NCBI RefSeq assembly: GCF_013122565.1
Contig: NZ_CP053258.1
DNA: 64,000 nt
Direction: 5' to 3' (one strand)
Source: Escherichia coli
GTDB taxonomy: Bacteria; Pseudomonadota; Gammaproteobacteria; Enterobacterales; Enterobacteriaceae
Shown here one piece after another: positions 1-24,000 of the stretch. The position numbers are program-made. Numbering within the stretch: the stretch's first letter is position 1; each line of letters begins with the position of its first letter.

Positions 1-3000
1 GCTTTGGTGATAGCTGCTTTCGGCAGTGTCGAGCAGATAATCCGGTGCGTTACGGTCCATCATCACCTTACCGGCAATCATACGCATATTGATATGACTG
101 GCGGCTTCAAACAGCGCATCAACGGATTGCGGATGAACAGTGCCAAACACCAGCGCCGTGGTGGTTCCGTTACGTAAAAGCTGCTTGATGAAGAACGCCG
201 ACATTTCGCGGGCGTACTCTAAATCCTCATAACGCCGTTCAGTAGGGAAGGTGTGTTTATTCAACCACTCCAGCAATTGTTCACCATAGGCCCCCACCAT
301 TTCACTTTGCGGATAATGGATATGTGTATCGACAAAGCCCGGTACTATCAGTTTGCCGCGATAGTCGCGCACGCGAATGGTGTCAGGAATTTGATGCTTT
401 CCGTTTTCCCATTCGCCAAACCATTCCACTTTTCCCTGTTTAATGAGTAATAAACCATCCTCAATAAACCGCAGCGCAGAGGCAATCTCTTCCGGGTTAT
501 CGACCGTACGGGTGACATCAATAAAACTGCCTCGTACCGCTTTTAACGTGTGTTCTCCTGACATTATTGACTCCTTTACTGTTAATCCATCTCTTCCGCT
601 GAGGTAATACCAGGCAGAACGTTTTCCTGTCGGTAGCCACCAGGGAGGATAATATTTAATAAAATCGCAGTTAACCCGCCAGCACAAATAGGGTTTTCAA
701 CTAATACATAAATAGAGGCTGGCAATATTTTAAAAATTTCGGGATCGTAGGAGACGCCAAGCCCTAAACCTAAAGAAGTGGCGACAATAAGTGTTTCACG
801 CCGCTTTAATCCGTTGGTGATGATGATGCGAATCCCAGCGATGGCAATCATGGAAAACATCAACGTCATTGCGCCTCCCAGAACTGCCGAGGGAATGGTC
901 GTGAAGAAGCCGCCAATCATCGGAAATAAGCCGAGGATAACCAGCATTACCGCGATGGTTCGCCCGACATAACGTGAAGCGACGCCAGTCATCTGAATAA
1001 CCCCATTATTTTGCGCAAACGTGGTTAATGGTAATGAACCGACAGCGGAGGCGATAACAGAAACCAGACCATCTGCCAGCACGCCGCCTTTCAGTCGGGA
1101 CTGATACTCTTCCCCCTGAATGGGGCGGCGGGAAACCATTGCCGTGGCGGTGATATCGCCGACTGCTTCCAGCACGCTAAGCAGATAAATCGTGCCAACC
1201 ACCAGGAACTGATGGAAGCTAAAACTAAAGCCGTATTTGAACGGATGCGGGATGGTGATTAACGGCAAATTGCGCATACTGCTGAAATCCACCATGCCCA
1301 GGCATAACGATGCGATATAGCCGACACATAGCCCAATGGCGATCCCTCCCATGCGTAGCAACGGACTGCGACAGCAGTTAAAGCCGATCACCACAATTAA
1401 AACCAATAAACCAACGCCGAGATGTTCGTAATTGCCGAACGTACCACTGCTTTTGGCTGCAAATCCTCCACCAAAATCGATAATGCCGACTTTAATCAGG
1501 CTTAAGCCGATCATCAGTACCACAATACCGCTGACGGTAGGCGTAATAACCCGACGTAAATAGGGCAAGATAAATGAAGATCCGACAACCAGAAATGCGC
1601 CAACGAAGGAGACGCCGAGAAGCGACGACATGATTAACTCTTCGTGAAAACCGTCGCTTTTCATGCTGCTGCCCAGCGCAATCATGACCGTAACAAATGA
1701 AAAATTGACTGACTGAATTGAGAGTAGGCCAGAACCGACGATGCCGTAGCGGTTTACTTGTAACCAGGTACCAATACCAGAGGCGATCATCGCCATAGAA
1801 ACAAGATAGGCGGTTGTTTCAGCGGAAAGCTGTAAGGCCGCACCCACGATTAACGCGGGGGTTACCATCGGAACGAAAATTGCCAACAGATGGGTAATGG
1901 CACCAACGAGAGACTGATGAAAGGGAGGGCGATCCTCCAGTTCAAATATAAGGTCAGAACCTGCATGGTTTATATCAGACATCCCTTCACTCCTTTTAAA
2001 GTAAATTTGATCATCTGAATTAGTAAAATAAATTCCCACGAATTTGGGGCGCAGGACGCCTTGAGAACGGCTTATCTCATTTTCGCAGTCACTATTTAGT
2101 CATCGTTCAAACAGAGAAACAGGCCGCCGAAGCGGCCATTTATTATTTATATTTTTTCCAGCGCAGTGAGTATTTTCTCCGGTGTGAAATGCCATTCGCG
2201 TAACCAGATGCCGCAGGCATCGTGAATTGCGGTAGCAATCGCCGGAGCTGCGCCATTTACACCGATTTCCGAGATCGATTTCGCCCCGAACGGGCCGACT
2301 TTATCGTCGCTCGGCACCAGCACAGCGCGGAAATCACGCGGAATGTCACCAATTTTCGGTGCGCCGTAACTGCGTAAATCACGCGTTAACGGGTGACCTT
2401 CGGCGTCATAAATGATCTCTTCGCTCATACTGTGGCCGATAGCACGCAGGGTGGCACCGTAGATTTGTCCCAACGCTAACTCTGGATTGACCGGTGTACC
2501 GCAGTCCAGCAAGGCGTAGAATTTATCCAGGCTGATTTCACCCGTACGCGTGTTGACGGCAACTTCAGCGAAGTTTGCGCCATACGGGAAAGCGAAATCA
2601 GGCGTGATATAACTGCCAGTTCCCACCAGTGAACCAAAGCCGGTGCCGGTTTCGCCTTTATGGGCAATATCCCCGAAACTAACTTCGCCTTTCTTGCCGC
2701 GCACGACGCCCGGCGTTGCTAGTTGAACATCTGCCACTGGCTCACCCAACATTTGCGCGCCGTGGAACAGAATTTTCTCCCGCAGATTTTCCGCTGCTAA
2801 ACGCGCCGCGTTACCCGAGAAGCAAGTACCGGACGAGGCATATGCGCCTTTATCAAACAACGCATGATCGGTATCACCGGAGATAACATGCACGTCCTGT
2901 GGTGGGCAGTGCAGCACTTCTGCTGCCAGTTTCGTCACCACAGTATCCAGACCAGTACCAATATCCGCACCGCCAGAATGAACAATAAAGGTGCCGTCCG

Positions 3001-21000: not shown

Positions 21001-24000
21001 GGACCAGGAGATAACATCAGTAAAATATTCGCGACCATGATCGATAATATGGATCAGGGCGTATTAGTTATTGATGACGATAATCGGATTCAGTTTGTTA
21101 ATCAGACAGCCTTAAAAACACTCGGTGTTGTGCAAAATAATATTATTGGGAAACCTATCCGTTTCAGACCATTAACATTTGAGAGTAATTTTACCCATGG
21201 ACATATGCAGCATATTGTTTCGTGGGACGATAAAAGTGAGTTAATCATTGGTCAATTGCATAACATTCAGGGCCGACAATTATTTTTAATGGCGTTTCAC
21301 CAATCGCATACCAGTTTTTCTGTAGCAAATGCACCTGATGAACCGCATATTGAACAATTGGTTGGCGAGTGCCGTGTTATGCGGCAATTAAAACGACTCA
21401 TTAGCCGTATTGCACCCAGCCCATCCAGCGTTATGGTGGTTGGTGAAAGCGGCACGGGTAAAGAAGTCGTCGCCCGTGCAATCCATAAGTTGAGCGGAAG
21501 ACGGAATAAACCCTTTATTGCTATCAACTGTGCCGCGATTCCGGAGCAGCTTCTGGAGAGCGAACTGTTCGGTTATGTTAAAGGCGCATTTACTGGCGCT
21601 TCTGCCAACGGTAAAACAGGGTTGATTCAGGCGGCGAATACGGGCACGCTGTTTCTCGATGAAATAGGTGATATGCCATTAATGTTGCAGGCTAAATTAC
21701 TGCGCGCTATTGAGGCACGTGAAATTCTGCCGATTGGTGCCAGTAGCCCAATACAAGTCGACATTCGCATCATTTCTGCAACTAACCAGAATTTGGCCCA
21801 GTTCATTGCAGAAGGTAAATTCCGCGAAGATCTCTTCTACCGACTTAATGTTATCCCGATAACTCTGCCACCGCTGCGTGAACGTCAGGAAGATATTGAA
21901 CTACTGGTGCATTATTTTTTACATCTGCATACCCGTCGTCTGGGATCGGTTTATCCGGGCATTGCTCCCGATGTCGTCGAAATATTGCGTAAGCATCGTT
22001 GGCCCGGAAACCTGCGCGAGTTAAGCAATTTGATGGAATATCTGGTTAACGTGGTTCCTTCAGGTGAAGTTATCGACAGCACGCTATTGCCGCCAAATCT
22101 GCTGAATAATGGCACAACGGAGCAAAGTGATGTAACAGAGGTCAACGAGGCGCACCTGGCACTCGATGATGCGGGCGGCACGGCGCTGGAGGAGATGGAA
22201 AAGCAAATGATCCGCGAGGCGCTTTCACGTCATAACAGCAAGAAGCAAGTTGCTGATGAACTGGGCATCGGCATTGCTACGCTCTATCGCAAGATTAAGA
22301 AATATGAGTTGTTAAACACATAACCTCAGTGAATCCGGCCTGAATTCAGGCCGGATATCCTTTTACTTCGTTTTCTCGCAATCCAGAACCGTATTTACAA
22401 TCATCTGATACCCCGTGCAGCGACAAAGATTTCCCGCCAGTCCGCGACGAATTTCCGTAATGGTTAATGGCTTCTCGCGTGGTTTCGCCAGCATTGCCGT
22501 GGTAGCCATAATCAGGCCAGGCGTACAAAACCCGCACTGCACTGCGCCGGATTTCGCATAAGCCTGCTGAACATGAGAAAGTTTTCCGCCTTTCGCTTCA
22601 CCTTCCAGCGTGCGGATCTCTTTTCCTTCAGCCCAGGCGGCAAGGTATAAGCAACTGTCTATTGCTGTGCCGTCGACCAGCACCGTACAGGCACCACATT
22701 CACCCACGCAGCACCCTTGTTTGACACTTAGCAGTCCTTGTTCGCGGAGTAATTCCGAGAGTGGCGTGCCTGGTGCGGCGTGAAGCTGAAAAGGCATCCC
22801 GTTAATGGTGCATTCGATGGTAATTGTTTCGCTGTGATTCATTGCAATTTTCCCCCCGCCGCGGCGACGGCTTCGCTAATCACTTTTTTGGTCATCGTCT
22901 GGATGAGATGCAGACGAAACTCTTTACTGGCCCGCCATGAAGAACGCGGGGCGACATCTTGCAGGACAGATTCGCTGATAGCTTCCAGCGTTTGCAGTTT
23001 TAATGGCGCATTTTGTGCAGTCTGTTCGGCATGTTGGCAGCGAATCGGCGTTGGCGCGGCAACACCAAATGCCAGACGTAATTCGCTGAAATTGCCGTTA
23101 TCCAGTCGGCAATGTGCGGCGCAGCCAATCGTTGAAATATCCATTGCGTCGCGCATGGCATATTTAAAATGCGCGCTGCCCGCGTGTTCTTTCGGCTGGG
23201 GCGGAAAATGAAAGGCGACAAGGATTTCGTCATGCTCAAGAGACACTTTGCCCGGCCCAGTGTGAAAGCCATTAATCGGGACGAAACGAACACCGCGTGG
23301 GGAGTGGATCTCCAGCTTTGCGTCATAAATTAGCGTTGGCGTGGCAGAATCTGCGCTGGTGGCACCGTTGCAAATATTTCCACCGTAGGTAGCGACGTTA
23401 CGGATCTGCGGTCCGGCAATGGATGAGGCCGCAGCACATAACGCCGGGAGATGACGTTGAGTTACAGGATCTTCAATGAGCTGGGTAAATGTCGTTGCAG
23501 AGCCGATACGTAGCGAGCCATCTTCCGCCAGCGTAATTCCCCGCAATTCCGCCAGATTATGAATATCAACAATATGGCGATAACGGTCATTGTGATGGTG
23601 GAGCTGAATCAGTACGTCAGTGCCACCGGCGAGCAGTTTGGCCTGCGGGTTGTCAGCCAGCAGGTTGATGGCATCGGCAAGGGTTGCTGCGCGATGGTAA
23701 GAAGCAAAATCAAACATGATGTTATCCTCAAATCAATCCTGCCAGATGGAACTCTTCATATAACCGTTTTGGCGTCAGCGGCAGTGTATTGATTGCAACA
23801 CCGGTAGCCATCTTCACCGCGTTACGAATAGCTGCGGCAACAGGAATTATTGGTGGCTCACCCAGTGACTTATGTCCGTATGCGGATTGCGGCTCATTGA
23901 TTTCGACGAACGCGCTTTCCAGTTGTGGCAGATCCGGCATGGTCGGCATTTTGTAATCCAGCAGATTGGGGTTACGGACCACGCCGCTTTTCGCATCGAT

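Follow-up and report, generated by a model that had tools for sequence, protein, structure and literature searches.

The subject of this work is a purine catabolic locus of Escherichia coli, located at positions 582-22323 of a 64,000-nucleotide stretch of DNA (NCBI RefSeq assembly GCF_013122565.1, contig NZ_CP053258.1; the whole stretch is referred to as the window). We regard it as very probable that the locus enables E. coli to break down uric acid reductively in the absence of oxygen, by the 2,8-dioxopurine or 'yanthine' pathway, under the regulation proposed below. The pathway function, chemistry, and physiological role of the locus, together with its sigma-54 binding sites, are already published, and the finding therefore counts as already known. 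What is added here to the literature that we reached is a candidate module of enhancer, CRP site, and sigma-54 promoter, which is well supported by comparison between genera. A broader proposal, to which we give somewhat better than even chances, is that this module (a YgeV palindrome, a CRP site at fixed offset, and a sigma-54 promoter) is shared from Escherichia to Photobacterium and Aeromonas, that YgeV senses through four cysteines of a GAF domain, and that XdhD is a labile-selenium molybdoenzyme.

The pathway was independently reconstituted with E. coli enzymes in two papers from 2025, those of Li et al. (PMC12507026) and Liu et al. (bioRxiv 10.1101/2025.04.24.650524). It was demonstrated that XdhD, with a co-purified protein of ~30 kDa taken as YgfM, converts urate to 2,8-dioxopurine using NADH, and that YgfK and SsnA jointly convert 2,8-dioxopurine to ureidomethyl-hydantoin (PMC12507026). 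In the same study, the hydantoin was opened by HyuA, the two ureido groups were removed by YgeW with phosphate and by YgeY, YgeX yielded pyruvate, and deletions of xdhA, xdhD, and ygfK produced the expected metabolite blocks. Formation of ATP from 2,3-diureidopropanoate by E. coli YgeW and YqeA was reported by Liu et al. (bioRxiv 10.1101/2025.04.24.650524). The first-pass annotation, made from the sequence of the window, had read the cluster as a purine-ring degradation route ending in ATP formation and had looked to cluster deletions for a purine phenotype; both expectations agree with the published E. coli enzymes and mutants. The steps were demonstrated on enzymes of strains K-12 and Nissle, to which the proteins of the window are 98-100% identical (the cluster proteins show this identity to their K-12 counterparts, with no internal stop codons). 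The window XdhD also retains Glu606, a residue proposed to orient the substrate (Li et al., PMC12507026). A point that counts against the scheme as it is drawn here is that the two papers conflict on which ureido group is taken off by YgeW, its product being albizziin (3-ureido-2-aminopropionate) in PMC12507026 and 3-amino-2-ureidopropanoate in bioRxiv 10.1101/2025.04.24.650524.

Applied to the window, the route would begin with xanthine, imported by XanQ and converted to urate by XdhABC. Urate would be reduced to 2,8-dioxopurine by XdhD-YgfM with NADH, after which YgfK would reduce the ring and SsnA would hydrolyse it. HyuA would then open the second ring to give 2,3-diureidopropionate; phosphorolysis of one ureido group by YgeW would give carbamoyl phosphate, from which YqeA would form ATP, while YgeY would remove the other ureido group and YgeX would convert 2,3-diaminopropionate to pyruvate and ammonia. 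All of these activities, and the synthesis of the cytidine form of the molybdenum cofactor by MocA, are shown for the K-12 and Nissle enzymes; YqeB and YqeC of E. coli would mature the molybdenum centre, perhaps with selenium. The genes involved, including those flanking 582-22323, are as follows.

1-564, minus strand: guaD (guanine deaminase), N-terminal part, truncated by the window start; assigned from collinear E. coli annotation, translation beginning MSGEHTLKAV
582-1982, minus strand: xanQ, xanthine/H+ symporter of the NCS2 family (TIGR00801, 455 bits against a cut-off of 291.8; 465/466 identical to K-12)
2147-5017, minus strand: xdhD, Mo/Fe-S subunit, urate to 2,8-dioxopurine reductase (TIGR03313, 2115 bits; 952/956 identical to K-12)
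5014-5793, minus strand: ygfM, FAD subunit co-purifying with XdhD (TIGR03312, 489.7 bits; 259/259 identical to K-12)
5844-7172, minus strand: ssnA, amidohydrolase opening the reduced pyrimidine ring (TIGR03314, 739.5 bits)
7175-10273, minus strand: ygfK, Fe-S flavoenzyme reducing 2,8-dioxopurine (TIGR03315, 1783 bits)
10595-11173, minus strand: mocA (ygfJ), molybdenum cofactor cytidylyltransferase (TIGR03310, 213.7 bits against a cut-off of 186.45)
11276-12046, plus strand: yqeC, selenium cofactor trait marker protein (TIGR03172, 241.9 bits; PMC2276186)
12094-13719, plus strand: yqeB, fusion of an XdhC-like and a TIGR03309 domain, a maturation marker of selenium-dependent Mo hydroxylases (TIGR03309, 416.6 bits; XdhC-type N-terminal matches)
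13939-14871, minus strand: yqeA, arcC-type carbamate kinase of the ATP-forming step (TIGR00746, 386 bits)
14919-16304, minus strand: hyuA, hydantoinase opening ureidomethyl-hydantoin or 5-ureido-dihydrouracil (TIGR02033, 675 bits)
16357-17568, minus strand: ygeY, M20 hydrolase removing the second ureido group (TIGR03526, 721 bits)
17625-18821, minus strand: ygeX (dpaL), diaminopropionate ammonia-lyase with the products pyruvate and ammonia (TIGR03528, 649.8 bits)
18879-20069, minus strand: ygeW, knotted carbamoyltransferase, ureido phosphorolysis to carbamoyl phosphate (NF005538, 825 bits; 396/396 identical to K-12)
20545-22323, plus strand: ygeV (isrR), bacterial enhancer-binding protein (Pfam domains, GAFTGA loop, fold search)
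22363-26025, minus strand: xdhC, xdhB, and xdhA, encoding xanthine dehydrogenase, which belongs to this regulon and stands at the pathway entry (annotation; members of the YgeV iModulon)

The 14 genes from xanQ to ygeV are all intact, with xanQ through mocA on the minus strand, yqeC and yqeB on the plus strand, yqeA through ygeW on the minus strand, and ygeV on the plus strand. The genes of HyuA, YgeW, YgeY, YgeX, and YqeA form a single co-directional block with gaps of 47-57 bp, all five products scoring above curated cut-offs, and ygfK and ssnA adjoin with a gap of 2 bp. Every cluster protein scores above the NCBIfam cut-off curated for its own family, except XanQ, which falls 0.65 bits short for the xanthine permease subfamily (413.5 against 414.15) and passes the NCS2 superfamily model. 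The genome of E. coli K-12 MG1655 is collinear with the window over 25.6 kb at 98.6% DNA identity with 3 gaps, and the RefSeq annotations of MG1655 and of the top-matching genome give an identical gene order. A megablast search against 5426 complete E. coli genomes matched the region in 5388, at 80% query coverage or more in 5150, the closest match having 99.0% identity. These profile scores and the comparison with K-12 uphold the genes named in the first-pass annotation, their positions, and their intactness. Its range of 582-22323 does cover the cluster; on the other hand, it includes xanQ, which had not been named, and omits xdhABC with its promoter (22363-26097) as well as guaD. The latter belongs to the same purine locus, and ghxQ, ygfS, ygfT, and uacT then follow beyond the window.

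The role of selenium in this pathway is less firmly placed. The genes yqeB (TIGR03309), yqeC (TIGR03172), and mocA/ygfJ (TIGR03310), which stand next to the molybdenum hydroxylase, are all intact and score above cut-off. Haft and Self (2008, PMC2276186) found YqeB, YqeC, and YgfJ/MocA grouped with molybdenum hydroxylases in genomes that carry selD and in no others, and the window matches this definition exactly, as had been recognised when the three genes were first taken as a signature of selenium-dependent molybdenum hydroxylases (SDMHs). The selD gene itself (b1764) lies elsewhere on the E. coli chromosome, outside the window (PMC2276186). Selenium dependence has been demonstrated in clostridia only, and for E. 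coli XdhD it is a prediction. In Clostridium sporogenes, the activity of the urate reductase (DOPDH) needs selenium and SelD (bioRxiv 10.1101/2025.04.24.650524), and purine-dependent growth of Clostridioides difficile needs SelD and YqeB.

Selenium, if it is used here, is not used as selenocysteine. It had been stated earlier that none of the open reading frames (ORFs) contains an in-frame TGA, which is true but tautological, because ORFs are defined by stop codons. We therefore place the weight on read-through: extensions across a TGA, upstream or downstream, were checked for the cluster genes and none was plausible. The sole cluster gene terminated by TGA is ygfM, whose stop overlaps the xdhD start (ATGA) and whose frame closes 5 codons on. 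The family profiles align at or within ~20 residues of the annotated N-termini, and an upstream extension is thus not indicated. An Rfam scan found no riboswitch, selenocysteine insertion sequence (SECIS)-like element, or other RNA in the cluster.

A competing account holds that XdhD carries an ordinary sulfido ligand, with YqeB and YqeC acting as general XdhC-like maturation factors. We consider it a serious, if less probable, possibility. In the judgement of Johnstone and Self (2024), E. coli 'likely does not make SDMHs', a doubt that weighs against a labile-selenium XdhD. Active XdhD-YgfM was obtained from E. coli in a study whose main text nowhere discusses selenium (Li et al., PMC12507026), and Haft and Self acknowledge that no enzyme of the labile-selenium kind had been seen in E. 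coli (PMC2276186). The sulfido account is harder to reconcile with the confinement of TIGR03309 (YqeB) to genomes with selD (PMC2276186), with the presence of YqeBC and SelD in all gut strains that have the cluster, with the inactivity of the C. sporogenes enzyme from a selD mutant, and with the intact yqeB, yqeC, and mocA of the window. If the selenium-dependent reading is true, XdhD of E. coli would be the first case of a molybdoenzyme with labile selenium in a model organism that is easy to manipulate genetically.

Sigma-54 control of the locus is supported by published binding, and the promoter regions share a layout for which we found no published description, consisting of a palindrome, a CRP-like site, and a sigma-54 promoter; with its spacing kept, the layout turns up again in about 30 genomes of other genera. 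The elements identified in the window are as follows.

10346-10361, minus strand: sigma-54 -24/-12 promoter of ygfK-ssnA-ygfM-xdhD, TGGTGCGATTGTTGCT, identical to the K-12 site OS31 and conserved in other genera
10425-10440: CRP-like site TGTGAATGAACTCACA with 0 mismatches, centred 72 bp upstream of the ygfK -24 GG
10530-10544: perfect palindrome TTATCATTATGATAA, candidate YgeV enhancer, 177 bp upstream of the ygfK -24 GG
11678-11693, plus strand: sigma-54 promoter inside yqeC driving yqeB, GAGCACGAACCTTGCA, identical to the K-12 site IS34
20160-20175, minus strand: sigma-54 promoter of ygeW-ygeX-ygeY-hyuA-yqeA, TGGCACACTTATTGTT, identical to the K-12 site OS30
20219-20234: CRP-like site TGTGATCAACCCCACA, read on the ygeW strand, with one mismatch, centred 52 bp upstream of the ygeW -24 GG
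20347-20361 and 20376-20390: two palindrome copies, candidate YgeV enhancer, 180 and 209 bp upstream of the ygeW -24 GG
26081-26097, minus strand: sigma-54 promoter of xdhABC, CTGGCGTAAATCTTGCC, an exact match to the K-12 site OS29
26216-26230: further copy of the palindrome, reading TTATCACATTGATTT on the xdhA strand, 128 bp upstream of the xdhA -24 GG

The OS and IS sites listed were mapped in K-12 by chromatin immunoprecipitation followed by sequencing (ChIP-seq), which located sigma-54 upstream of xdhA, ygeW, ygfK, and ygfT and at one site inside yqeC (Bonocora 2015, PMC4591121). The last of these is the yqeB promoter, as proven in K-12 by mutation, quantitative reverse-transcription PCR, and Western blot, and it is induced by nitrogen limitation (PMC4591121). 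An RpoN holoenzyme peak in the ygeV/ygeW spacer was also obtained by genomic SELEX (systematic evolution of ligands by exponential enrichment). Of 27 ygeV-ygeW spacers of other genomes, 26 contain TGGCAC-N5-TTGTT or a near match to it; the -12 element of the ygeW promoter is TTGT, not GC. A sigma-54 consensus scan of the whole window gave 44 matches against 38.5 +/- 6.2 in shuffled sequences and was not enriched, so that the case is made by positions and published binding rather than by counts. The activator candidate, YgeV, has a PAS domain (~162-205), a sigma-54 interaction domain (272-439; PF00158, E = 2e-70) with the GAFTGA loop at residue 347, an AAA lid, and an HTH_8 domain (548-587; E = 3e-13). 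The sigma-54 control proposed in the first-pass annotation holds, since the ChIP-seq motifs of K-12 are present base for base and YgeV is a complete enhancer-binding protein. The YgeV iModulon of PRECISE-1K comprises xdhABC, ygeWXY, hyuA, ygfK, ssnA, ygfM, xdhD, ygfT, and uacT, and lowered ygfT expression in a ygeV mutant is cited in a passage of PMC10602906. Direct dependence of the cluster promoters on YgeV is mostly inferred.

The conserved palindrome TTATCA-N3-TGATAA is probably the YgeV enhancer, which is the most economical reading of its distribution. In this proposal, YgeV would bind the palindrome 130-210 bp upstream of each -24 element. The copies in the ygeV/ygeW spacer (20347-20390) also lie 155-198 bp upstream of the ygeV ATG. 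One 15-mer, TTCTCATATTGATAT, is common to the upstream regions of ygeW (20376-20390) and of ygfT (outside the window, at ~2579-2593 of locus L001), at distances of 209 and 174 bp from the respective sigma-54 sites. Matches to the palindrome number 14 in the window, where 5.5 +/- 2.2 are expected and none of 100 shuffles reached 14; the four promoter regions hold 5 matches against 0.24 expected, a number equalled in none of 3000 simulations.

Because the pattern was derived from these same E. coli sequences, it was retested in other genera. The comparative set comprised 80 loci encoding YgeW relatives; in 35 of them, the N-terminal domain specific to YgeV is encoded as well. Of 27 ygeV-ygeW spacers of other genera, 26 carry the palindrome, the range extending from Citrobacter, Klebsiella, Edwardsiella, Hafnia, Morganella, and Serratia to Photobacterium and a betaproteobacterial genome, and in several of these genera it is nearer to the perfect form than the E. 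coli copy. The spacers carry 2.60 matches per kb and the remainder of the same loci 0.177 per kb. Most Enterobacterales have the palindrome 209-213 bp from the ygeW sigma-54 site, whereas three Photobacterium species have it at 170-171 bp. When both strands of 31 loci were searched, all 43 pairs of a palindrome and a sigma-54 site preceded cluster genes (ygeW in 29 cases, ygfK in 8, xdhA-like genes in 4, ygeY and ygeV in 1 each) and none preceded an unrelated gene. At ygfK, the spacing is 177-178 bp in 7 of 8 loci (Citrobacter, Atlantibacter, Edwardsiella, Hafnia, Serratia). Among ygeW loci that lack the YgeV sensor domain, the palindrome occurs in 5 of 41, four of these being Aeromonas, Rhodanobacteraceae, or Rhodocyclaceae; outside these three groups there is one match in 37, a weak one in DNA of 28% G+C.

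It is conceivable that the palindrome is bound by another regulator, Fur or another global factor, and that the true YgeV enhancer lies elsewhere, an explanation that we find doubtful. Its half-site TGATAA resembles the Fur-box hexamer GATAAT, a likeness that counts for such a regulator and makes it a live alternative, and the pathway enzymes are rich in Fe-S clusters. Fixed distances of 128-217 bp between the palindrome and a downstream -24 element are, however, usual for an enhancer and not for a repressor that overlaps the promoter. In addition, every palindrome paired with a sigma-54 site in the 31 loci precedes a cluster gene, and the palindrome is lacking upstream of ygeW in phyla without a YgeV-type sensor, save for the single weak match in 37.

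Several other observations weigh against YgeV as the activator acting through these palindromes on the whole locus. The link between YgeV and the palindrome is inferred from position, conservation, and co-occurrence only, and the kinship of the genera tested means that common descent could account for part of the conservation. No palindrome was found near the yqeC-internal promoter of yqeB, and because this promoter also responds to nitrogen limitation, it is probably not dependent on YgeV. In addition, YgeV has been renamed IsrR and described as an indole-induced activator of virulence genes in enterohaemorrhagic E. coli and Citrobacter rodentium (PMC9426417); genes outside purine catabolism may therefore also belong to its regulon. 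A published YgeV binding site was not found in the literature searched, though Iwadate and Kato (2019) may describe one. As a separate observation, the maturation gene yqeB seems to be under a different activator from that of the enzymes it serves.

The third element of the layout is the CRP-like site between palindrome and promoter, which would confer catabolite control. A native Crp site in the ygeV-ygeW spacer has been reported, along with glucose repression that was bypassed by promoter replacement (PMC12507026). In other genera, 21 of 29 ygeW promoters have a CRP-like site no more than 130 bp upstream of the -24 element (19 of them at an offset of 51-53 bp), as do all 8 ygfK promoters (7 of them at 72-73 bp), where the background rate is 0.055 sites per 130 bp. 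These fixed offsets are consistent with the reported glucose repression (PMC12507026). IHF-like sites (WATCAANNNNTTR) were sought between the palindromes and the promoters and none was found; CRP may for this reason supply the DNA bend besides catabolite control. Sigma-54 promoters of the prpBCDE type need an enhancer-binding protein together with CRP. The present layout resembles them in its upstream activator site, CRP site, and -24/-12 elements, within a glucose-repressed operon.

The signal would reach YgeV through a GAF-PAS module with four invariant cysteines. In an alignment of the window YgeV with 35 orthologues, C84, C87, C93, and C109 (encoded within 20794-20871) are conserved in 36, 36, 35, and 36 of the 36 sequences, respectively, and they are kept even where the N-terminal domain is only ~38% identical. 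An AlphaFold model of the sensor, built from 27 sequences, is of moderate confidence (predicted local distance difference test, pLDDT, 75.2; predicted template modelling score, pTM, 0.61). Its cysteine loop scores lower, and for this reason nothing is concluded on cysteine geometry. A fold search with this model returned GAF and PAS modules, with the N-terminal region of E. coli DhaR among the top matches. The cysteine cluster in the GAF pocket suggests, as speculation, a metal, Fe-S, or thiol switch that would tie expression to anaerobiosis. No published description of the four-cysteine motif of YgeV was found.

The oldest alternative, that xdhD-ygfM-ygfK encode a selenate reductase supplying selenide, lives on in TIGR03315 and in the RefSeq product name of YgfK and was discussed for the E. 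coli genes by Haft and Self (2008, PMC2276186), but we hold it to be very improbable, as purified XdhD-YgfM makes 2,8-dioxopurine from urate, YgfK with SsnA takes this product onward, and the metabolite blocks of xdhD and ygfK mutants match the urate pathway. Selenate reduction by XdhD-YgfM-YgfK is at most secondary and is not the main function. The database names of two proteins, 'D-phenylhydantoinase' for HyuA and 'putative selenate reductase subunit' for YgfK, trail the biochemistry of urate degradation.

The uric acid cluster described in K-12 and Nissle (PMC12507026; bioRxiv 10.1101/2025.04.24.650524) has the same genes, order, strands, and sigma-54 motifs as the locus in the window, from which it differs only in alleles. 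The clostridial uric acid clusters (DOPDH/XdhAC in C. sporogenes; XdhD, UacX, and UacY in C. difficile) follow a like pathway logic, are linked to yqeB/yqeC, and share the SsnA, HyuA, YgeY, and YgeX steps with E. coli. In contrast, C. difficile uses the PydA-like UacX instead of YgfK and the hydrolytic UacY instead of YgeW/YqeA, so that no ATP is formed at that step, and its XdhD, which acts without YgfM, is ~26% identical to the E. coli enzyme. In Clostridiales, a predicted DioR regulon places dpaL, ygeW-ygfK-ssnA-ygeY, and yqeC-ygfJ-yqeB-xdhC under a sigma-54 activator (PMC6615313). This prediction indicates that sigma-54 control of the pathway recurs across phyla, although DioR is a different member of the activator family from YgeV and has a different operator. 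The arginine deiminase pathway likewise couples ureido phosphorolysis to carbamoyl phosphate with ATP formation by carbamate kinase, an analogy drawn by the authors of bioRxiv 10.1101/2025.04.24.650524; its substrate is citrulline, whereas here it is 2,3-diureidopropionate, and YgeW belongs to a separate 'knotted' carbamoyltransferase family.

The cluster lets gut bacteria remove host urate, which gives it relevance to gout and kidney disease; this significance is already published, an engineered probiotic included. The locus makes the selenium need, the YgeV signal, and the interplay of enhancer, CRP, and sigma-54 testable in E. coli. An understanding of this interplay would explain the poor expression of the pathway in wild-type E. 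coli and would point to de-repression without foreign promoters.

Other features of the window touch the pathway less directly. The convergent spacer between yqeB and yqeA is listed first.

13728-13930 (about 13720-13938): yqeB/yqeA convergent spacer, with terminator-like hairpins on both strands and repeats resembling repetitive extragenic palindromic (REP) elements, GCCGGATAAGGCG...GCATCCGGC

Downstream of the purine genes, a tRNA-Gly at 27273-27343 (71.6 bits) is the only Rfam match in the window, and it is followed at 27538-29190 by a glycoside hydrolase family 15 gene and a gene for a GhoT/OrtT-type toxin. The part from the tRNA-Gly to 29190 forms the junction of the purine locus and the island of E. 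coli type III secretion system 2 (ETT2), and the content of K-12 differs there. A large, apparently near-complete ETT2 island (eivF, sctC, sctV, sctN, and others) occupies 29782-47563. This island is mostly lost in K-12; over this part, E. coli strain 48 matches the window collinearly at 98.2% identity. The ORFs at 36739-39006 look unbroken in the window, whereas the annotation of strain 48 gives one partial and one frameshifted gene at this place.

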